This document shows, piece by piece, positions 38,523-50,307 of a stretch of DNA of 64,000 bases. Under the pieces are notes generated by a model that was not told the DNA's origin, made no database searches, and worked only from the letters and a program-made list of their open reading frames with translations. The translations under genes and the position numbers were made by a program. Within the stretch, counting starts at the first letter, position 1; each line of letters begins with the position of its first letter. Origin of the DNA: Candidatus Poribacteria bacterium (GTDB taxonomy: Bacteria; Poribacteria; WGA-4E; GCA-2687025); the NCBI GenBank assembly GCA_963665845.2, contig OY762492.1:3776001-3840000 (forward strand), read 5' to 3'.

Positions 38523-38822
38523 GCGAATTCCCCCTTTTCAAGGAGGGCGCGCAGCGAATTCCCCCTTGAAAAGGGGGGCTAGGGGGTTTTAAAGGACGGG
38601 CGCGGCGGCTGCAATGCCTAAGATTCTCGCTTACGCGGGAATGACGATTTGGCAGTCTCTATAGGCGATGATTTCGATTTTAGAGAACCGTTTTGGAATG
38701 CGAAGGTTCTCTGGGAAAACTCTGGATTCCCGCTTACGCGGGAATGACGCCTAGCGGCGCGGCGGCTGCAATGCCTTAAGATTCCCGCTTACGCGGGAAT
38801 GACGCCTGGCGGCGCGGCGGCT
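38523..38822. repeat. Repeat mosaic: two CCCCCTT/AAGG modules and three REP-like palindromes
   Basis: 38558-38647 is nearly identical to 48496-48586. The last palindrome overlaps the ybeY stop codon. Confidence 0.85.
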
Positions 38823-39283
38823 TTTCCGCTGGTCATCGCGTTTCTTTTGGCGCGCGCTGCCGAATCCAGTTGATGGGCGAGAGCGACGGCTGTCGGGTCT
38901 TGTTGAAGGGCGGCAAGAGCCTCCGCTTCCGCCTTCAGCATTCGGGACGCCTCCGCCTCGCCATGATGATCATGCCCGTTGAGATGCAGCGCCGCATGGA
39001 CGGCAAGTCGCGCCGTTTCATCTGAAAGCGTACAGCCCGCCTTTTTTGCCTGCCGCGCCGCCGTTTCAATGGAGAGCGCGATGGATCCGTACTCCGCATG
39101 TTCATCGTCCGGCGGAAAAGCGAGCGTATCGGTGGCGGCGTCCACGCCTCTGTAATCGCGGTTCAGGGCGCGTATCTGTTCGTCCCCGGCAATCAGGATG
39201 TCGATGCGCGCGTTTGGCGCGTTCAAAGCAATTGCCGCGGCGCGCTCAACCAGCCGATGCGCCGCTTCATACAGCTCGCTCAT
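38789..39283 (-). CDS. ybeY: rRNA maturation endoribonuclease YbeY
   Basis: LNRDYRG...TDTLAF and HAALHLNGHDH; phoH-HD-ybeY gene context. Confidence 0.9.
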   Translation of the reverse strand: MSELYEAAHRLVERAAAIALNAPNARIDILIAGDEQIRALNRDYRGVDAATDTLAFPPDDEHAEYGSIALSIETAARQAKKAGCTLSDETARLAVHAALHLNGHDHHGEAEASRMLKAEAEALAALQQDPTAVALAHQLDSAARAKRNAMTSGKAAAPPGVIPA

Positions 39284-39288
39284 CGGGA

Positions 39289-41577
39289 TCAGTGGGATCT
39301 GTTGTCAAGGGCGGTGGAAGGCTCCAGTTCGGAGCTGAGCTCGGTGGGGTCGTGTACTGTTTTGTCTTCTGGATACTGAATTCTGGAGTGGTACATACCG
39401 AGGAGCGTCCGCTCAAACTGCTCGGACAGGAGTCTCAAGTCGTTCAATGTGAGTTCGCTTTCGTCCAGCTGTCCGTCCTGCGCGTAATAACTGACGATCT
39501 CTTGTACCACCTTTTCGCAGTCTCTTCGGGTCAGTTCTCTTGTGGTTTGAAACTTCGCGTTTGCCGCCGCTTCGATGGAATCTGACAGCATCATAATCGC
39601 CGCCAGCTTTGTTTGCGGTTTCGGCCCTGGGTATCGGAAGCTGGATTCGTCAACCGTTTCGCCCGCCTGCTGCGCCTTGTGGTAAAAACCGCGGATGAGC
39701 GATGTCCCATGGTGCTGCATGATCAGATCCAGCGCCTCTTTCGGGAGTCGGTTGTCGCGTCCGAGGGCGACCCCGTCTTTCACATGCGCAATCAAAATGC
39801 GGGCGCTCATGGTCGGTTTGAGCTGATCGTGCGGATTCGGTCCGCCTTTCTGATTTTCAATGAAGTAGTTGGCGGTCGCGGGGGAATTTATTTTTCCGAT
39901 GTCATGAAAATAGGCGCCGACCCGCGCTAAAAGAACGTTTTCATCCAGCGTTTCAGCGGCCGCCTCCGCCAGACGCGCCACGTTCAGGCTGTGGTTGAAG
40001 GTGCCGGGAGCCGTTTTTTGAACGCGCTCAAGCAGCGGATGGTTAAGATCCGACAGGTCCATCAGCTCCAGGTCGGTCGCGGAGCCGGCGATAAATTCTA
40101 ACCCTGGAAGAATGAGCGGAATGAACGCGGCGCTCAGAAAACCGGCGACCAGCGCCGTACCGCCGACGCGAAGCGTCTCCCAACTGGCGATGTTGGAATG
40201 CAGCGCGGAAGTTGCCAGCGCTATTAAAACGACGGCGCCCGTGGTGTAGACGCTCACCGTAACAAGATCCTTGCGCCTGCGGATATTGAGCATGGCGAAG
40301 GTGGACGCAAAACCGCTTGCCAAAAGCGTCAACAGCTGCGGCAAACTTGCATCATGCGAGACGCTGCTCATGACGCCCGCCAAAATGGAGAGCGCCAGCG
40401 TCGCAAGAATGCCGTATCCGGGCCCGATCAATATGGTGGAGAGGCCCGCCGCCGTACCTACCGGCAGCAGCAGGGCCGGAAATGCCACCCATGTTCCAAC
40501 GCCCAGCGCCGGCGATTCTAGAATCATGGAGCCGACGCGCATGGCTCCGATTGCGGCGAGAACGCACAGCCCGTACGCCCACCATTCGCGCGCTGTCGGT
40601 CCCGAGCCGACCTGTATCTCCGAACAGTAAAAGACGGCGGAGCCTAAGATCGACGCGACCAGCAAAAAGGTTCCAATGAATACGGAGGATACCTTAACCC
40701 TGCTGATTTTGTGGGTCGGCTTCACCTCCGCCGCCGCTTTTTCTTGCCGGGCTGTTGTGGCGGCGTCGTCGAAATCTAGGTTGTAGCTGCCGATAAACAG
40801 AACCCCCAAAATGTCCTTCATGAGCTGCTTCACTTCAGGAGTTAGGCTCTCGTCTTCAAGCGCATCGATTTTATCCCTAACGGCTCTGACAGCTTCGTCG
40901 TAATCTGGAATGTCTTCAACCTTGACAATCATGCCTTTTTCTAGGTCAGACGGGACGATCTCGATCTCCATCGCAGCGACGCTGGGCCACTTGCTGGTGA
41001 GTTCAGGATCAAAGTATTCGTGCAATTCTCCTAGCACGCTGTCCGGATGATCTCCCGCAAACCGCACCCCCGTCTCTAAAACGGATTTGAACACCGACAG
41101 CGTATGGTCGCGTATATCAGAGAACGATTGCCGATGCTGTATGAGGCGGTCTACAAGATCGGCGCCGCCAAAATAGGAATCGGTCGTCGGGTTGCTTAAA
41201 ATCTCCGCTTTGCGCTGCGCGTCGTCGCCCGAACCTGCGTTTCTAATGGGGTCCGAAATCTGCTCAAAGAGATCCACCGCCGCGTTGTACGGCTTCAATT
41301 CCAGGTTGAAGATCGGAATGGCGTTTTTTTTCGCGATGTCGCGCGCTTTTTCGGTCGCCGCTTCATCCTCCCCGCTTTCGTAGATCGGCATGCAGACCCA
41401 GGTCAACAGGAAGGAGGCCCCCGCCACAATCAACGCCCATTTTCGTTTCTTGCCTGCAGTCGAATTGTTGACCTGCATGAGCGAGGCGGCTCTTCCTTGG
41501 CGCCGCTCAACGCCTTTGCCTGCAGCGCCGCGCTGGCGGCTGCCGCGGCGAACGCTTGATCTGCGGAGACGTCTCAT
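39289..41577 (-). CDS. 7TM-HD membrane phosphohydrolase (PgpH-like)
   Basis: Extracellular domain, transmembrane block, APGTFNHS, FHDIGK, HHGT and SDSIEAA. Confidence 0.88.
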   Translation of the reverse strand: MRRLRRSSVRRGSRQRGAAGKGVERRQGRAASLMQVNNSTAGKKRKWALIVAGASFLLTWVCMPIYESGEDEAATEKARDIAKKNAIPIFNLELKPYNAAVDLFEQISDPIRNAGSGDDAQRKAEILSNPTTDSYFGGADLVDRLIQHRQSFSDIRDHTLSVFKSVLETGVRFAGDHPDSVLGELHEYFDPELTSKWPSVAAMEIEIVPSDLEKGMIVKVEDIPDYDEAVRAVRDKIDALEDESLTPEVKQLMKDILGVLFIGSYNLDFDDAATTARQEKAAAEVKPTHKISRVKVSSVFIGTFLLVASILGSAVFYCSEIQVGSGPTAREWWAYGLCVLAAIGAMRVGSMILESPALGVGTWVAFPALLLPVGTAAGLSTILIGPGYGILATLALSILAGVMSSVSHDASLPQLLTLLASGFASTFAMLNIRRRKDLVTVSVYTTGAVVLIALATSALHSNIASWETLRVGGTALVAGFLSAAFIPLILPGLEFIAGSATDLELMDLSDLNHPLLERVQKTAPGTFNHSLNVARLAEAAAETLDENVLLARVGAYFHDIGKINSPATANYFIENQKGGPNPHDQLKPTMSARILIAHVKDGVALGRDNRLPKEALDLIMQHHGTSLIRGFYHKAQQAGETVDESSFRYPGPKPQTKLAAIMMLSDSIEAAANAKFQTTRELTRRDCEKVVQEIVSYYAQDGQLDESELTLNDLRLLSEQFERTLLGMYHSRIQYPEDKTVHDPTELSSELEPSTALDNRSH

Positions 41578-41659
41578 CTGTTCGAATCCTTTTCTTTGGT
41601 TGCATCCAGCCGATCAACATGACCATAATACAACCGCGCCGATGTGTCAATCATGAATG

Positions 41660-41827
41660 TCGACCTTACGTCTTTAGTCGGGACATGCCGGAATGGGAAC
41701 GCGAACGTCTTCTGCGGCGCCTCTAGATTCCCGCTTGCGCGGGAATGACGGTCTGGTTGGCGGCGCCTTTTTCCCATGAATAAGGGCTTTGGTCGTTCAA
41801 ATGTCCCAACTTTCAGCATGAGGTCAG
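41660..41827 (-). mobile_element. MITE-like element, inverted copy (168 bp)
   Basis: Reverse complement of the 14613-14780 element, with both TIRs. Confidence 0.82.
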
Positions 41828-41840
41828 TGAATGGAGCGGA

Positions 41841-42854
41841 TTAAGCGTTTTCTTTAGGGTACGATCTGGAATCGGCGTCGTACGCTTCCACAATGCGCTG
41901 CACAAGCTCATGCCGCACCACATCCGCCGACGAGAACTCGACCACCCCGATGCCGTCAATACGGCGCAGAACGCCGACTGCATGCATGAGGCCTGAAGGG
42001 TTGCCGTCCGGGAGGTCGCTCTGCGTCGCGTCGCCCGTGACGACCGCTTTGGAGTCGAACCCTAGCCGCGTGAGAAACATTTTCATCTGCGGTATCGTCG
42101 CGTTTTGCGCCTCGTCCAGCACCACAAAGGCGCGGTTCAGCGTCCTTCCGCGCATAAACGCCAGCGGCGCAATCTCAATGACCCCCCGCTCAATATACTG
42201 CGCGACGACGTTGATCGTAAACATATCGTAAAGCGCGTCGTAAAGCGGGCGCAGGTACGGGTCGATCTTCGCCTGAATGTCGCCAGGAAGAAAACCCAGT
42301 TTTTCGCCCGCTTCAACGGCGGGGCGCGTCATCATGATGCGGTCAACCGTCCCGGATTTGAGCGCGGACGCCGCCATCGCCATGGCGAGATAGGTTTTTC
42401 CCGTCCCCGCCGGACCGACGCCGAAGACAAGGTCTTGCCGGCGCATCGCCTCAATGTAGAGGCTTTGATTTTTGGAGCGGGGGCGAATCGGTCCCTGTTT
42501 CGCATGAATAGCGAGCGAGGACAAAGCCTCGCCGTCCGCTTCGCCGCCTTCTTCGGCGGACGGAAGCGCCGTTTCAGCCGGCTCCGGGCGGGCTGTCTTT
42601 CGGACTGCCGCCTGCACATCGCGCATCTCTATGGAGGCGCCGGAACGCGCTATTCCGAGCAGCTTGTTTAAAATTTCTCCCACATGCTCAACATCCTGAT
42701 CATTGCCGACCACCTCAAGATGATCGCTCCGCAACATGACCTGCGCGCTGCGGTCCGCCTCAATGATCTTGAGAAAGCTGTCCCGCTGACCGAACAATTG
42801 CTGCGCTTCAGCGATGCTCTGCAGCCCGATTTTCAACGATATTCGCTTCTGCAA
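41841..42854 (-). CDS. phoH: PhoH-family ATPase
   Basis: GPAGTGKTYLA, RPAVEAGEKLGFLPGD, MRGRTL and DEAQN. Confidence 0.95.
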   Translation of the reverse strand: MQKRISLKIGLQSIAEAQQLFGQRDSFLKIIEADRSAQVMLRSDHLEVVGNDQDVEHVGEILNKLLGIARSGASIEMRDVQAAVRKTARPEPAETALPSAEEGGEADGEALSSLAIHAKQGPIRPRSKNQSLYIEAMRRQDLVFGVGPAGTGKTYLAMAMAASALKSGTVDRIMMTRPAVEAGEKLGFLPGDIQAKIDPYLRPLYDALYDMFTINVVAQYIERGVIEIAPLAFMRGRTLNRAFVVLDEAQNATIPQMKMFLTRLGFDSKAVVTGDATQSDLPDGNPSGLMHAVGVLRRIDGIGVVEFSSADVVRHELVQRIVEAYDADSRSYPKENA

Positions 42855-42930
42855 TACTACGCCTTTCCAACGCCTACAGGGCGCGAGTCGAATGCCGCGC
42901 TAGTTATGATGCCTGCCGATAGAGCAAATG

Positions 42931-43308
42931 TCAAGAATCGGTCGGCGGAGGGTGCGACGCGCGGCAAACGGTGTGAATGCCGCCGCGTATGTTGTAATCG
43001 GTCGTGACGGTCATCCGCTTCGGAGACAGGAGACGGACCAGATCGGTCAAGATCCGGTCCGTCGCATGCTCCTGGTAGATGCCGACATTCCGATACGACA
43101 GGAAATAGTATTTGAGCGACTTCAACTCCACGCACCGATCGCTTGGGGTGTACTGGATCGTGACGCGGGCGATGTCCGGCAAACCCGAAAAGGGGCAGAC
43201 CGCGCTGAACTCCGCCGTTTCGCAGGTGATCACCTGCTCTACCCCGTCGTAGGCGAAGGTTTCCAGTACGCCCGCGTCGATGCTGTCGGGCGGGTCGAAC
43301 GCTTTCAT
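42931..43308 (-). CDS. queF: NADPH-dependent preQ0 reductase QueF (type I)
   Basis: [22 protein letters not shown] and RGGI. Confidence 0.92.
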
Positions 43309-43315
43309 CGGCTTT

Positions 43316-44038
43316 TCAGTCGCCCCAGATCTGCGCGGATTTCTGCCGCGGCTCCACCGACAGCGCGTCCCCGCCAAACGGGATAGAGGAGCCGACCAGC
43401 TCAAAGTCGTCGAACGAGAACGTTCCGTAATAGATGACCAGGCCGATGCCTCCAGACTTGGCCGAATCCGCCCAGGTCACTACGAGCGGTTCGCCGTCGT
43501 CGATCTGGAAGGATATCTGGTCCCTGCCTCCATCAAGCGTTTCAACGGACGCCTCAATGTTGTACCAGACGCCCGTTTCAAATTCCTGGTCTCTCCAGAA
43601 TGTGCCGAAGCTGTCGGGGGTATAACTCCAGATATCCGCGCGCGCCGTCTGCGGATTGATGGAGCATTCGTGGTAGTATCCTTGTTCAAGGTCGGAGTAG
43701 AGATAGACCCCAAAGTACGTGTTGATCCCGACCGTCAGTTCCGAGTCCATGCGCGCCCGGACGCGCAGCGTGTAGTTCTTCCATTGAGACGGGTCGGAGC
43801 CTGCAGGCTTCAATTCCAAAATGCTCCAAGAATTTGGTTGTTCGATCCAGCCTTTGAGAACGTTGTTCCCATCCTCGTCCTTCTCTTCTTCCCATGACTC
43901 AATGCCTTGAGCGAAGTTGTAAATTTCCCAGTCGTCCAGCCCTTCGTCTTCGAAGCTGTCTTGCCAGACGCCTGCAAAGGACGGCAGCGCCGCCGCCGCC
44001 GCTATCGTCAACGCCATCGTCCGAATCAGAATCCGCAT
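43316..44038 (-). CDS. Secreted beta-sandwich (DUF1080/ConA-like) paralog 1; C-terminal motif truncated
   Basis: Signal peptide, WQDSFED, NYTL, GVWYNI, SGGIGL and SFDDF; ends [14 protein letters not shown]. Confidence 0.75.
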
Positions 44039-44067
44039 GCCGCTTTCTCCTCTTTTGAACGCCGTTC

Positions 44068-44817
44068 TCATCGTTTCAGGTTTGCCCATATTTGCGCCGC
44101 CTTGCCGGTTGGCGAGACGGAAAGCGGACCTTTTCCGCCGGTCGGTATCGATTCGCCGGTGACAAGCACCTCGTCGAACGAAAAGACGCCGCGCCCAATC
44201 GTCAATCCGACGCCGCCCGACCCGATGCTTGCGGGCCAATCTACAATGAGCGGCTCGTCATCGTCCACCCGGAAAGTGATGCGGTCTCTGCCGGTCTCCG
44301 CGTCCGTTTCCACGGTCGCCGAGATGTCGTACCATCGTTCACCCTCAAACATCCGACGCAATCTAAACACGCCGAAATCGTTCTCGGTGTAGTAGCGCAC
44401 CTCGGACAAGCTCTGCTCAAGCCGCGCGAGACAGACCAGCTCCGTGACGCCGTCCCATTGATCGTAGAGGTTGAACCCGAAGATCGCCGCTTCGCCGTCC
44501 TGAATTCTGGTGTCCATTCGGGCGCGCGCCTGAATCGTGTAGTTTGTCCACTGGCTTGTGTCCACATTGGGCGGTCTAAGACGCAAAGTGCTGACCAGTG
44601 TGGGTCCATGTATTTCGCCGGTGAGAATGCCGTTGCCCAGCTCCGTTCGCACCTCCCATTCGGCTTGAGTTGGATCGTTCGCTCCCTGCGGATCCGTGAA
44701 CGCTTCCCAGTTGTCCAGCCCGCCGTCTTCAAAATCTTCATGCCACACGCCCGCCGAAGCTTGTAAGACCAGAATCGCCGCGGCTGCGAAAACCGTTGTT
44801 CTTGCCAATGTTCGCAT
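44068..44817 (-). CDS. Secreted paralog 2
   Basis: Same motif series; ends SVSPTGKAAQIWANLKR. Confidence 0.78.
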   Translation of the reverse strand: MRTLARTTVFAAAAILVLQASAGVWHEDFEDGGLDNWEAFTDPQGANDPTQAEWEVRTELGNGILTGEIHGPTLVSTLRLRPPNVDTSQWTNYTIQARARMDTRIQDGEAAIFGFNLYDQWDGVTELVCLARLEQSLSEVRYYTENDFGVFRLRRMFEGERWYDISATVETDAETGRDRITFRVDDDEPLIVDWPASIGSGGVGLTIGRGVFSFDEVLVTGESIPTGGKGPLSVSPTGKAAQIWANLKR

Positions 44818-44883
44818 AAACCTTCTCCATGTTCTTCAACCCCATGATACACTGCAGACGCCGAAGCCTGCAACATGGGGGCG

Positions 44884-45654
44884 CTATTCCCGACTTTTCA
44901 GCTCCGCCCATATCTGCGCCGAGAGACCCGCTGGGGAGACCGACCATGGCTGTCCGTCTGGGATGGAGTCGCCCTCAACGACGAAATCGTCAAATGAGAC
45001 GCGCCCGTCGCTGACGATGAGACCGACGCCGCCTGAATGCAACTGCCGTTTACTCGTAATCTCTAAAGCCACATGATCTTCCACCGTGAAAGTGACGCGT
45101 TCGGAATCGTCCAGCGTCTCAATGGTCGCTGTCAGGTCGTACCATACTCCCTCTCTATGCTCCAAATTTAAAGGGCCTCCTATGCCTAGACCAAGTCCTC
45201 CCGGACCTTGGGAATGCGTTACAATTTGCGCCAGATTTGCCTGCAGAAATTTGAGATAGGCGAGGTTGTACTGGTCTATGTCAAGGCGATCGTAGAGCAT
45301 GAGTCCAAAGCGGACGCCCCGCGGTTTCGATTCCAGGCGCGCTTTGACATTGACCGTGTAATTATTCCAGTCGTCTGTGTCAACGTCGGCAGGTTTGCGC
45401 GGCTTCAGCTGCAGGAAGCTCATATGCCCCGGTCTAGCTTCGCCGACAACGAACCCGTCCTTTTCATCCCAACTTTCGGCGCCAGGATCGAAATCGTAAA
45501 CGACCCAGTCGTCCAAACCGCCGCCTTTAAAATCGTCATGCCATGCGCCGGCGAAGGCTGTTGAAACGATCCACGCCGACGCAACGGCGGCGGACGCCCA
45601 AACGAGCCATGCATATCGGCGCGCGCTGTTCAAACGAATCATCGTATGCCGCAT
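44884..45654 (-). CDS. Secreted paralog 3
   Basis: Same motif series; ends SVSPAGLSAQIWAELKSRE. Confidence 0.78.
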   Translation of the reverse strand: MRHTMIRLNSARRYAWLVWASAAVASAWIVSTAFAGAWHDDFKGGGLDDWVVYDFDPGAESWDEKDGFVVGEARPGHMSFLQLKPRKPADVDTDDWNNYTVNVKARLESKPRGVRFGLMLYDRLDIDQYNLAYLKFLQANLAQIVTHSQGPGGLGLGIGGPLNLEHREGVWYDLTATIETLDDSERVTFTVEDHVALEITSKRQLHSGGVGLIVSDGRVSFDDFVVEGDSIPDGQPWSVSPAGLSAQIWAELKSRE

Positions 45655-45688
45655 GTCTGCCCTCCAATGTTCCGAACGCGTCTGCGGT

Positions 45689-46459
45689 TCATCTGCTTTT
45701 CAGCTCCGCCCATAGCTGCGCCGAGAGACCGGCTGGGGAGACCGACCTTGGCTGCCCGTTTCCGCCGTTTGGGATGGAGTCGCCCTCAACGACGAAATCG
45801 TCAAATGAGACGCGCCCGTCGCTGACGATGAGCGCGACGCCGCCTGAAACCACCTGCGCGTTCCATTCGGTCATGAACGGAGGATTATCGTCCACCTGGA
45901 ATGTGATGCGTTCGGAATCGTCCAGCGTCTCAATGGTCGCCGTCACGTCGTACCACACTCCCTGCTCCACATTGAACAGAAAGAAATCGTTGCCGGATCC
46001 ATTCCCTACGCGGATATGCATTTGAACGCCCGCCTGATGGTATAGGAAAAAGATCCAGTGGAACATGTTCTGGTCAATACGGTCATAGAGCGCGAGTCCA
46101 AATCTGGCGTTCTGGTCGTCCTCCGGTTCCGATTCCAGACGCATTTTGACCTTGACCGTGTAGTTTTGCCAGTCGTCGGTGTCCACGCCGGCAGGCTGGC
46201 GCGGCTTCAGCTGCAGGAGGCTCCAGGCTGTTGTCAGATTAATCTCGCCGACAACGAACCCGTCCTCTTCGTCCCAGCTTTCGGCGCCAGGGTCGAAGTT
46301 GTAAATGACCCAATCTTCCAATCCGCCGCCCTCAAAGTCGTCATGCCATGCGCCGGCAGAGGCGGTTGAAACGATCCACGCCGACGCCGCGGCGATGGAC
46401 GCCCAAACGAGCCATGCATATCGGCGCGCGCTGTTCAAACGAATCATCGTATGCCGCAT
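45689..46459 (-). CDS. Secreted paralog 4
   Basis: Same motif series; ends SVSPAGLSAQLWAELKSR. Confidence 0.78.
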   Translation of the reverse strand: MRHTMIRLNSARRYAWLVWASIAAASAWIVSTASAGAWHDDFEGGGLEDWVIYNFDPGAESWDEEDGFVVGEINLTTAWSLLQLKPRQPAGVDTDDWQNYTVKVKMRLESEPEDDQNARFGLALYDRIDQNMFHWIFFLYHQAGVQMHIRVGNGSGNDFFLFNVEQGVWYDVTATIETLDDSERITFQVDDNPPFMTEWNAQVVSGGVALIVSDGRVSFDDFVVEGDSIPNGGNGQPRSVSPAGLSAQLWAELKSR

Positions 46460-46520
46460 GTTTGCCTCCAAGTTTGCCTCCAAGTTTGCGCTTTACAATT
46501 CTGGGAGAAGCGCGCGTCAG

Positions 46521-46551
46521 GCGGTCATGCCGAACCATGCGGCATGACCGC
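46521..46551. terminator. Intergenic stem-loop (terminator or mRNA-stabilising hairpin)
   Basis: GCGGTCATGCCG-N7-CGGCATGACCGC, a perfect 12-bp stem; no clear U-tract. Confidence 0.45.
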
Positions 46552-46595
46552 GTTGACAAACTTCCTCCGTTCAACGAATGGAACGGGCTTGAGGC

Positions 46596-47366
46596 TTACC
46601 GGCTTTTCAGATCGCCCCATAGCTGCGCCGCGAGACCGGCTGGAGAGACCGACCTTGGCAGCCCGTTTCCGCCGTTTGGGATGGAGTCTCCCTCAATGAC
46701 GAAATCATCGAACGAGACGCGCCCGCCGCCGACGATGAGCGCGACGCTGCCTGAAATCGCCTGCCCATTCCATTCGGTCATGAACGGCGGATTATCGTCC
46801 ACCTGGAATGTGACGCGTTCGGAATCGTCCAGCGTCTCAATGGTCGCCGTCACGTCATACCACACTCCCTGCTCCACATTGAACGGAAAGAAGTCGTCGC
46901 CGCCTGCATTCCCTATGCGGATATGCATTCGAACGCGCGCCTGATGGTATTCGAGAAAGATCCAGTGGAACGTGTCCTGCTCAATATGATCATAGAGCAT
47001 GAGTCCAAAGCTGGTGTTCTGGCCGTCCTCCGGTTCCGATTCCAGACGCATTTTGACCTTGACCGTGTAGTTTTGCCAGTCGTCGGTGTCCACGCCGGCA
47101 GGCTGGCGCGGCTTCAGCTGCAGGAGGCTTATGAATCCTGGCTGATCAATCTCGCCGACAACGAACCCGTCCTCTTCGTCCCAGCTTTCGGCGCCAGGGT
47201 CGAAGTTGTAAATGACCCAATCTTCCAATCCGCCGCCCTCAAAGTCGTCATGCCATGCGCCGGCAAAGGCTGTTGAAACGATCCACGCCGACGCCGCGGC
47301 GACAAACGCCCCAACAAGCCATGCTGATCGGCGCGCGCTGTTCAAACGGACCATCGTATGCTGCAT
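46596..47366 (-). CDS. Secreted paralog 5
   Basis: Long stretches identical to paralog 4; ends SVSPAGLAAQLWGDLKSR. Confidence 0.78.
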   Translation of the reverse strand: MQHTMVRLNSARRSAWLVGAFVAAASAWIVSTAFAGAWHDDFEGGGLEDWVIYNFDPGAESWDEEDGFVVGEIDQPGFISLLQLKPRQPAGVDTDDWQNYTVKVKMRLESEPEDGQNTSFGLMLYDHIEQDTFHWIFLEYHQARVRMHIRIGNAGGDDFFPFNVEQGVWYDVTATIETLDDSERVTFQVDDNPPFMTEWNGQAISGSVALIVGGGRVSFDDFVIEGDSIPNGGNGLPRSVSPAGLAAQLWGDLKSR

Positions 47367-47582
47367 GCGCGTCCTCCATGTTTGCGCTTAATGACCATAG
47401 AATACATTGCGCAGTCTGAATCCGCAAACAGAAACGCCGATCATAGCGGCGGCGCCTGTAGGCGGCGGCATGCATTGCGCGGGAGCGCGCCGATTCAGGC
47501 TGCTATTCCCGCGCAATGCCACTCCTTATCGGCGCCGTCCAGACAGCCGATTCTTGTCCAATCGGCATTTGCGCGTCGGGCG

Positions 47583-48329
47583 TTACTGGCGTTTGATTTC
47601 TCCCCAGATCTGCGCGGCGCGTCCAGCGGGCGAAACGGATGTTTGCGCCATGTGGCCGCCGTCCGGTATGTTGTCGCCTTCGACGGAGAAGTTGTCAAAC
47701 GAGGCTTGCCCGCCTTCTACGATGAAGCCGACGCCGCCGGAACCGATGGAAGCTTGCCATGTCAATCCGAGCGTGTCGCCGTCGTTTATTTTGAAGGCGA
47801 TCGTTTCGGTGTCGCCGTCCGTTTCGATCCGCACCGCCAGGTCGTACCAGACGCTGCGTTCGATAACAAACGGAAATGTGTCAGAACCTGCGCCGTTGCC
47901 GATGCGAAGATACAGCAGCACATTCTCATCCTGAAACTGGAGCAAGCAGAGATGGTACATCGTTTCTTCGAATCGGTCGTACACGGCGAAGCCGAAGCTG
48001 GTCGAGCCGCCTGGGTCCGGCTCGGAGTTCAAGCGCAGCCGGGCGCGGACGGTGTAGTTTGACCAGACGCTGACGTCTTCGCCTTCCGGCTTCAGCTGCA
48101 GGATTGAGAAGAAGCCGGCGACGTTGATCTGCCCCGTCATGACCCCGTCTTTTTCTTCCCAGGATTCGACGCTCAAGTCGGCCTTGTAGATCTGCCAGTC
48201 GTCCATGAGGCCGTCTTCAAAATCGTCCACCCAGATTCCGGCATGAGCCGCGGACGCCGCCAAAAAGGCCGCCGCCAAAAGACCGATTCGAGTCGAAGCG
48301 CGGAACATTGCAGTCGCTCTGTGTCGCAT
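47583..48329 (-). CDS. Secreted paralog 6
   Basis: Same motif series; ends SVSPAGRAAQIWGEIKRQ. Confidence 0.78.
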   Translation of the reverse strand: MRHRATAMFRASTRIGLLAAAFLAASAAHAGIWVDDFEDGLMDDWQIYKADLSVESWEEKDGVMTGQINVAGFFSILQLKPEGEDVSVWSNYTVRARLRLNSEPDPGGSTSFGFAVYDRFEETMYHLCLLQFQDENVLLYLRIGNGAGSDTFPFVIERSVWYDLAVRIETDGDTETIAFKINDGDTLGLTWQASIGSGGVGFIVEGGQASFDNFSVEGDNIPDGGHMAQTSVSPAGRAAQIWGEIKRQ

Positions 48330-49266: not shown

Positions 49267-50307
49267 TTATTCGTCGTCATCTGATTCTTCAGGGTATTTC
49301 TCAACCGGACTGAAAATATCTTCGTCCTCGTTGACAACGCCCAAGTTCAACTCAACCCGTTTGAAGTTAGCTTGGTTCTCTGACCCGTATTTACGCGTCT
49401 TTTGCTTGGTGACATAAACAGGCGTCAGAAGAAGCTGAATTTCTTGCTGAACTTTTGTCAGTTCCGCGTTCAATTTCTCCGCTTCGTTTTCTGAAAAATC
49501 GCCGCTTGCAAGACGAGACAGCAGATTGGTTTCCTTCCGCTCCGCCTCATAATATTTGCGCCGTCCGCCTTCCGAGAGCGTGAGCTTCCTCTTAAAGTTG
49601 ATGACAAGCTCCATTGGCGCAATCATGTTGTAGATTTCGCCGTTCGGCAGTTCAACTTTGTGGTAAAGCACAGATTCCGGCAATCTGCCTGCTCGAACCA
49701 ACAACGACAACGGCTCTTGCCCCTCCACTGACCATATCGGGTCCATTGCTTCTTCCAGAGCCGCGTATTTTCCATCCTCTCCAATTTTTTTCATCACATT
49801 CTCTAATGCATCCCATCCGACCCTTAGGATCCTTCGATCCTCGCGAGAGAAGCCAAAATGCCCTAATTGCGCCTCCTTCGCAGTGAGATACTCTTCATCC
49901 ATCATCGCTTCCCACTCCGCTTCCTCCTTCGTCAAAGGTTTAGGATTTTTGACGTCTTCGGCGTACAACCTTTCAAATTCTTCGGCAACCAACTTGGCGA
50001 AGTAGTCCAGCGTTTCGTCGCGCGATCCGAAATGGGTCGGAATCTCCGCGTCGGAGTTCGTTTTTTCAGCAGATTTATTCGTAGAATCGGACATTGAATC
50101 GGCGATTTCCGATTCAGGATTCGGCGCCTTTGGGGCGACCACGGGCGATTGCCGGTCATGCGCCTCCGCCCCGCCTCCGGACGCCGCGCCTTGAGAAGCG
50201 GAGTCGCCCGCGCGGCGGCCAAGAAGCCATACCAGCGCAACCGCCAACAAGCAGACCGCCAAGAATGAAATGAGCGTAACAGCAACGGCTCGTTGTCGTT
50301 GATTCAT
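49267..50307 (-). CDS. Hypothetical protein with N-terminal membrane anchor
   Basis: One hydrophobic segment, a low-complexity linker and a charged globular region. Confidence 0.65.
   Translation of the reverse strand: MNQRQRAVAVTLISFLAVCLLAVALVWLLGRRAGDSASQGAASGGGAEAHDRQSPVVAPKAPNPESEIADSMSDSTNKSAEKTNSDAEIPTHFGSRDETLDYFAKLVAEEFERLYAEDVKNPKPLTKEEAEWEAMMDEEYLTAKEAQLGHFGFSREDRRILRVGWDALENVMKKIGEDGKYAALEEAMDPIWSVEGQEPLSLLVRAGRLPESVLYHKVELPNGEIYNMIAPMELVINFKRKLTLSEGGRRKYYEAERKETNLLSRLASGDFSENEAEKLNAELTKVQQEIQLLLTPVYVTKQKTRKYGSENQANFKRVELNLGVVNEDEDIFSPVEKYPEESDDDE

Follow-up and report, generated by a model that had tools for sequence, protein, structure and literature searches.

In a 64,000-nucleotide stretch of the genome of a Candidatus Poribacteria bacterium (contig OY762492.1, positions 3,776,001 to 3,840,000; hereafter the window), six tandem genes encode small secreted proteins that end in the same short motif. 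We found that this C-terminal tail, about 18 residues long with the consensus L-S-V-[DNES]-P-x-G-K-[AL]-A-x-x-W-[GA]-x-L-K, is a real, genome-wide, cross-phylum and uncatalogued C-terminal signal, whose role may be in sorting. We give an even chance to the proposal that it acts as a pared-down C-terminal signal for a type IX secretion system (T9SS) without a motor, and would direct small binding proteins exported by Sec to the cell surface. The tail would then indicate a likely destination for about 3.6% of the proteome (113 of 3,134 proteins) and for thousands of proteins of uncultured phyla that are currently annotated by their passenger domain only, or as hypothetical.

A C-terminal tail on exported proteins of the Poribacteria

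The original prediction, made from the array, held that similar tails occur on many unrelated secreted proteins of the Poribacteria, and called for a scan of the proteome. We called 3,134 genes with a hexamer model of our own and built a hidden Markov model (HMM) from 71 tails selected by pattern. At a cut-off of 12 bits, this HMM matched 113 of the 3,134 called proteins, and the match lay no more than 19 residues from the C-terminus in 112 of them and no more than 29 in the last one. The reversed proteome, searched with the same HMM, gave no match at 12 bits and a best score of 6.0 bits. When the HMM was built from the six array tails alone, 91 tail proteins stood among its top 100 matches.

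By a crude rule, 108 of the 113 tail proteins carry a signal peptide; the rule is passed by 953 of the remaining 3,021 proteins and by 522 of a size-matched set of 1,811. Of the five tail proteins that failed the rule, two appear truncated at the 5' end and a third has a short hydrophobic start. In the fourth, a signal peptide lies upstream of an in-frame TGA, and in the fifth a signal-like stretch precedes the called start. Stripped of their tails, the proteins fell into 22 BLAST clusters, the largest with 38, 23 and 16 members. A Pfam scan of 41 tail proteins from outside the window returned LamG, PD40 propeller, PF06439, CBM9, CBM4/9, NPCBM, PKD, reprolysin-like (metzincin-like), AhpC/TSA and DUF4960 domains. 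Tails were present in all 61 Poribacteria genomes, with at least 6 to 126 matches in each (lower bounds), and 54 of the 56 tail matches found in 1.84 billion representative proteins were C-terminal; two internal HMM matches (P0030 and P0050) are unrelated repeats and were rejected as tails. Together, these results demonstrate that the tail is common on unrelated secreted proteins and co-occurs with signal peptides, as predicted; it is neither part of one family's fold nor common on cytoplasmic proteins.

The tail proteins have few other features by which they might be held in place: a lipobox match was found in only one of the 113, and that one is doubtful, and none contains a hydrophobic 19-mer after residue 40. 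The tails themselves have a mean net charge of +2 and a mean hydrophobic moment of 0.25. No Pfam or NCBIfam model covers the tail or the shorter form described below, and sequence searches of the PDB with three alignments gave matches at chance level only (the best, an antibody chain, at E 0.042). We found no description of the tail in the open-access full-text literature that we searched, which does not prove its absence from print.

Two groups of passengers deserve mention. In most of the 38 TolB-like members, the motif is followed by an acidic extension of about 6-25 residues, and exported TolB-like PD40 propellers of about 365 residues are encoded by 38-46 genes at many loci of contig C1 (for example L009:2144-5585). 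At C1:2982281-2982860 (L014) lies a tail-bearing AhpC/TSA redoxin with a signal peptide upstream of an in-frame TGA at a UxxC-like position; judging by this arrangement and a weak SelL-related match, it is probably an exported selenoprotein.

The six array genes were found as open reading frames on the minus strand, at 43305-48329 of the window:

47583..48329, minus strand: paralog A, 248 residues; signal peptide, concanavalin A-like beta-sandwich (fold taken from the model of paralog B), tail at 47583-47642
46596..47366, minus strand: paralog B, 256 residues; tail at 46596-46655; modelled with AlphaFold2
45689..46459, minus strand: paralog C, 256 residues; tail at 45689-45748; domain 84% identical to that of paralog B
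44884..45654, minus strand: paralog D, 256 residues; tail at 44884-44946
44068..44817, minus strand: paralog E, 249 residues; tail at 44068-44124, the nearest of the six to the genome-wide consensus
43305..44038, minus strand: paralog F; early stop in the assembly at 43316, intact tail at 43305-43363 in read-derived contigs

Sec-type signal peptides had been predicted for all six, and we found a basic, hydrophobic N-terminus and an AxA-type site in each (by eye, with a crude heuristic). The terminal motif as first written, SV(S/E)PxGxxAQ(I/L)W(G/A)x(L/I)K, matches five of the six exactly, the remaining one reading PRQK where the motif has PxG; SVxP...AQxW is invariant across the aligned six. 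The claim that the tail is kept while the domain diverges also stood: mean pairwise identity is 69% in the tail versus 46% in the domain. A second shared element, GxxIPxG, is indeed invariant in all six, but it falls outside the portable signal, because it is confined to the array family and lies within the confidently folded domain. The reported truncation of one paralog (paralog F) was an assembly slip. Contigs from all four sequencing runs (from no more than three samples, all of one study that may also have supplied the data for this assembly) contain one extra base behind 43317; with it, the ending WGD* of the assembly becomes WGDLKSR*, with the stop at 43305. Orthologues of paralog F (P0008 and P0010) end in WGELKSR.

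The beta-rich domain noted in the array was modelled for paralog B (AlphaFold2, 31-sequence alignment) as a beta-sandwich, with a predicted local distance difference test score (pLDDT) of about 90 up to residue 200. In the tail, which the model places as a loop and a terminal helix (helix predicted at 209-222), pLDDT is 58-63, and the tail is thus predicted to lie outside the passenger fold. Foldseek ranked CBM66 first, followed by legume lectins and glucanase-type folds; the match to 4b1m had an E-value of 1.6e-7, a target-normalised TM score of 0.80 and 13% identity. The modelled passenger therefore resembles the concanavalin A-like beta-sandwich of CBM66 and the legume lectins in fold, but differs in sequence, at only 13% identity. 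None of the six has a Pfam or NCBIfam match, and PF06439 is matched by relatives within the same BLAST cluster. Because the modelled fold is CBM66/legume-lectin-like, the six proteins are probably carbohydrate-binding modules.

Type IX secretion genes and a shorter tail in other phyla

The sections of Kamke et al. (2014; PMC3909097) drawn on here report T9SS C-terminal domains (CTDs) in single-cell genomes of Poribacteria, describe no machinery and leave the pathway open. The SprA-, PorV- and PorU-like genes of the present genome bear on this pathway. The SprA-like protein (C1:935094-941690; 2,198 residues) scores 181.8 bits against TIGR04189, just below the cut-off of 200, and SprA homologues occur in this genome and in 14 others across the Poribacteria. 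The PorV family has 12 matches, 5 of them above cut-off, with a PorV orthologue at C1:3740912-3741820. Two PorU-like C25 proteins with CTDs are encoded on the main contig C1 (1293086-1299277 and 1858861-1865773), below the equivalog cut-off, and the genome contains 53 matches to the CTD model TIGR04183. A search for motor components returned no match to GldM, in a genome that is 90% complete and with control genomes that also gave none, and partial matches to GldK below cut-off.

Several further genes of this kind were observed. A PorX-like regulator lies at C1:2334493, and several PorV-family barrels lie beside a single giant cargo protein of 2,479, 3,453 or 4,003 residues. Genes for membrane proteins with DUF6785/DUF6784 domains flank a PorV-family gene and also lie after a PorU-like one (C1:1216269-1221206 and C1:1291087-1292997). 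Contig C3:1-15776 (L029) is a heavily frameshifted duplicate of C1:1286000-1300700, PorU-like gene included, and is likely an assembly artefact.

In this genome, tail and CTD exclude each other as protein endings: no called protein carries both a terminal tail and a CTD, and the median length is 263 residues for tail proteins versus 906 for CTD proteins (47 proteins, NPxN type). In one S8 protease of this genome, a full tail directly precedes the CTD. A W-motif occurs within the 32 residues preceding the CTD in 18 of the 47 CTD proteins versus 18 of 32,161 background windows, by a pattern drawn post hoc and with 17 of the 18 positives looking like WD40 paralogues. A DNA pattern that joins the tail core to the start of a type A CTD was found in 54 of 61 Poribacteria genomes, with no match in the reversed control and none in this genome. 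All 30 loci that we fetched translate as [AS]V[ED]PxGxxxTT[WFL]Gx[IV]K, six residues and N[YF]PNP, where G and K were set by the pattern and V, P and TT were not. The W is retained in 10 of these 30 CTD-linked copies and replaced by L or F in 20, as would be expected were the CTD to make it redundant.

One passenger module also occurs with either ending. Residues 1-207 of the tail protein at C1:1739067 (409 residues) are 84% identical to C1:246536, a CTD-terminated WD40 protein of 1,504 residues, and the same protein is 79% identical to C1:241512 (WD40, CTD-terminated); the shared stretch of about 210 residues includes the signal peptide. Homologues in CTD proteins were found for 10 of 222 tail passengers; 3 of these matches are strong, and the others are weak ones to propellers or lamin-tail domains. 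A search for longer homologues of one passenger found none.

A shorter form of the tail, TWGx[VILM]KAL[YF]R, was tested on GTDB, where it occurs in at least 127 stretches. We examined 80 loci among the matches listed; their labels include Eisenbacteria, Krumholzibacteria, Latescibacterota, Zixiibacteriota, Gemmatimonadota, Fibrobacteraceae, Ignavibacteria (Melioribacter and the cultured Rosettibacter primus) and Bacteroidia. In 77 of the 80 we found 82 in-frame matches (some overlapping), and 80 of these lie within 10 residues of the stop. At two loci of a Patescibacteria-labelled genome that has no SprA (L131 and L132), the TWG motif is internal, and one of the two has a downstream peptidoglycan-hydrolase-like domain. 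Each of four genomes contains 25-76 short-tail copies, on lamin-tail, beta-helix and CHRD passengers and on a majority that are unclassified.

In a 401-genome sample of the Rosettibacter phylum, a related pattern occurs in 77 genomes, nearly always once. Eighteen of 20 fetched loci encode a single kind of protein of about 130-145 residues with a signal peptide, an FN3-like domain and the ending S[SG]VKRTWGSIKA[LM]FR, to which no family is assigned; since the other two are not in a long reading frame, a few of the 77 are chance matches. This single-copy family (L112:1497-1892 and L188-L207, about 135 residues) has 1,259 relatives, whose named top matches are hypothetical proteins, a few labelled FlgH. 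It ranges from Ignavibacteria to phototrophic relatives of the Chlorobi and high-GC Bacteroidia-like genomes (class labels inferred), and its presence in the cultured Rosettibacter primus (locus L112) makes it testable at the bench.

A profile of the short tail (A5) matched none of three Poribacteria genomes at E 0.01. We nonetheless infer that the long and short tails are homologous, because they share the core [ST]W[GA]x[ILV]K and an upstream V[ED], and because an intermediate ending, TWGGVKTLY, occurs in the present genome. Of 64 tail-bearing genomes, 62 contain SprA; in the Rosettibacter phylum sample, all 77 pattern-positive genomes do, versus 312 of 401 overall. Among 98 genomes encoding the Fenna-Matthews-Olson (FMO) protein, the tail occurs in 6 of 11 that are SprA-positive and in none of 87 that are SprA-negative.

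A candidate minimal signal for type IX secretion and its rivals

How might so short a tail act? In the scheme that we propose, it would serve as a T9SS signal that dispenses with the usual CTD of 70-90 residues and consists of a cleavage site and a docking helix. The protein would be exported by Sec and its passenger would fold in the periplasm. The helix, with its invariant Trp and Lys, would then dock on the SprA translocon or on a PorV-family barrel, the simplest candidate being the PorV orthologue at C1:3740912. A PorU-like C25 protease would cleave close to where the tail begins, at [LT]|[SA]-V, and the passenger would end up either free or joined to a surface glycolipid. The six array proteins would be surface carbohydrate-binding modules.

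This minimal T9SS signal is favoured by the [LT]-S-V start of the tail, by its place, which is that at which the removed part of CTD cargo begins, and by its alternation with the CTD. At positions W-12, W-11 and W-10 of 111 tails, L or T occurs in 90, S in 99 and V in 109. The resulting [LT]|[SA]-V appears to resemble the published T9SS cleavage consensus, although the motif is short. According to passages of PMC11969387, PorU cleaves within the linker, with a preference for PT/GI, and joins the cargo to a glycolipid, and CTDs of 40-55 residues that keep three strands are functional. As described in part of PMC10994853, Sec-exported cargo bind the loops of PorV inside SprA via the CTD, and one conserved Lys contacts PorV.

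Several observations weigh against this proposal. PorU cleavage is reported in a portion of PMC4804311 to be sequence-independent, which weakens the argument from the cleavage motif. The tail has none of the beta-strand motifs B, D and E, which the short CTDs still retain, and it is not a free C-terminal strand, since the TolB-like members carry acidic extensions. Some passengers, such as the TolB-like propellers and the redoxin, could equally be periplasmic; the localisation of tail proteins, like their docking, cleavage and attachment, is a prediction. Because GldM was not found and GldK only in part, the energy source is unexplained. The co-occurrence with SprA amounts to about one loss event, because 87 of the 89 SprA-negative genomes belong to one phototrophic group; it is weak evidence, SprA being general in these lineages. 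No dedicated partner gene was found beside tail genes or SprA: the neighbours of 68 tail loci were not convincingly enriched in any family (at best, a dehydrogenase family was seen 5 times against 0.8 expected, uncorrected), and the SprA neighbourhoods of 21 genomes have no dedicated gene in common. PorV2 (NF052325) was rejected as a reader of the tail, as it occurs in 73 of 80 genomes irrespective of the tail, and a tree of 123 PorV-family sequences (FastTree, midpoint root, weak deep support) contains no tail-specific clade.

BamP, PorA and PorD were also weighed as readers, from the descriptions in papers alone, and dropped. At C1:2948701-2952450 (L352), a lamin-tail CTD protein, a small PorV-like barrel and a helix-hairpin-helix barrel are encoded in one run, and a similar pair of barrels occurs at L340, L341, L343 and L344, in several tail-bearing genomes including this one. 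The pair may be regarded as a candidate reader, as a lead only, from a comparison of tail-bearing genomes.

The main rival to a T9SS signal, although we consider it unlikely, is that the tail is a non-covalent docking peptide, whose helix binds a conserved envelope protein such as an outer-membrane barrel, a scaffold on the surface or a carrier that has a CTD. Small modules would then be carried along by T9SS cargo or decorate a scaffold, much as dockerins bind cohesins. The near-invariance of WGSIKA[LM]FR across distant classes suggests a protein partner, and a docking peptide would account for the occurrence of the tail alone only on small, single-module proteins, for the fixed spacing between tail and CTD and for the tolerated extensions; one tail protein has a weak cohesin match. 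However, our model of a tail followed by a CTD gave the tail a pLDDT of 66-68, with no helix and no packing, such that packing of the tail on the CTD in cis is unsupported. This explanation also leaves the cleavage-like [LT][SA]V start unaccounted for, and no scaffold gene is co-localised.

Less likely again is an amphipathic helix, independent of T9SS, that tethers periplasmic proteins to a membrane face or to peptidoglycan-associated structures. The predicted terminal helix and the positive mean charge fit such a tether, as do the TolB-like and redoxin passengers, which are typical periplasmic folds; the passengers have no other anchor, given the single possible lipobox and the lack of internal transmembrane segments. 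Yet the hydrophobic moment is just 0.25, and lipid binding needs neither the invariant W, G and K nor their fixed spacing. Nor does a tether explain the swap or the position before a CTD, where the tail would leave with the CTD. It is improbable that the tail only marks proteins for processing or quality control by a periplasmic protease or chaperone and plays no part in sorting: short, flexible C-terminal motifs on many proteins could be read in this way, but this one is limited to exported binding modules, is kept internally before CTDs and has expanded in parallel in several phyla. Finally, that the tail is part of the fold of the array family, or a chance pattern, has nothing but the paralogy of the six in its favour and is refuted by the 22 clusters with their many folds, by the low-confidence appendage in the model and by the empty reversed control.

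The original prediction had proposed an undescribed export or surface-anchoring system. We found that the signal is portable and uncatalogued, as such a system would require, but an entirely distinct system is less probable than a signal linked to T9SS, because of the SprA-, PorV- and PorU-like genes, the tails that precede CTDs and the alternation of tail and CTD on one passenger. A broader form of the T9SS proposal, which we hold tentatively and with somewhat less confidence than the proposal itself, is that the tail constitutes a third, hitherto undescribed class of T9SS signal, of 15-20 residues with a cleavage site and a helix but no beta-sandwich. It would be ancient in the Fibrobacteres-Chlorobi-Bacteroidetes (FCB) group and the Poribacteria, retained on one conserved protein in Ignavibacteria and Chlorobi relatives, and expanded in several uncultured phyla to 25-120 cargo proteins served by a motor-less SprA-PorV-PorU system. 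Should the tail suffice for export, a short peptide rather than a folded domain would be the minimal T9SS signal; the model of recognition by the translocon would change, and a compact tag for surface display would be on offer.

The array's neighbourhood and comparison with known signals

The array lies directly upstream of queF, phoH, a 7TM-HD gene and ybeY (window 38789-43308). The first of these is a neighbour outside the tail system:

42931..43308, minus strand: queF (preQ1 synthase, QueF-II)

The restored stop of paralog F overlaps the start of queF (ATGA), which suggests that the array is co-transcribed with queF; promoter and terminator scans of the array gave results at chance level. 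Just upstream of the array, the gene at window 49267-50262 belongs, as judged by its similar C-terminus, to a family of 40 genes whose products lack a Pfam match and are predicted to be membrane-anchored or exported.

Among known C-terminal signals, sortase-type tails such as LPXTG, PEP-CTERM, GlyGly-CTERM and MYXO-CTERM, as presented in part of 10.1101/2023.06.07.544157, are likewise short, portable motifs on many unrelated secreted proteins. The tail differs in having no transmembrane helix, basic cytoplasmic tail or invariant Cys, and we found no cognate sortase nearby. That it is neither PEP-CTERM nor LPXTG, as first stated, agrees with the absence of a hydrophobic 19-mer after residue 40 from all 113 proteins and of an NCBIfam match from the scanned tails; one short-form passenger resembles the PEP-CTERM protein family NF033554 (27.8 bits, below cut-off). 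The tail proteins also lack the lipobox Cys that defines lipoproteins.

The closest likeness is to the T9SS type A CTD. Both are C-terminal, occur on Sec-exported proteins of unrelated folds and contain one invariant Lys, and the start of the tail may likewise be a cleavage site; the tail alternates with the CTD on one passenger, precedes it in other proteins and co-occurs with SprA. The CTD, however, is a seven-stranded sandwich of 70-90 residues with motifs B, D and E. The tail has neither the sandwich nor the motifs, comprises about 18 residues (about 14-16 in the short form), is predicted to form a loop and a helix, and occurs on small proteins. Consistent with the original distinction from a CTD, neither the six nor any other scanned tail protein has a match to TIGR04183, PF18962 or PF13860. 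The short CTDs of Prevotella intermedia, as described in passages of PMC11969387, set a precedent, in that a T9SS signal can be shortened, retain its cleavage motif and still allow attachment; they are three-stranded sheets of 40-55 residues that retain motifs B, D and E, whereas the tail is less than half as long and predicted to be helical. From these comparisons, we conclude that the tail plausibly works like a T9SS cargo signal and is a member of neither the CTD family nor the transmembrane sortase-type tails.

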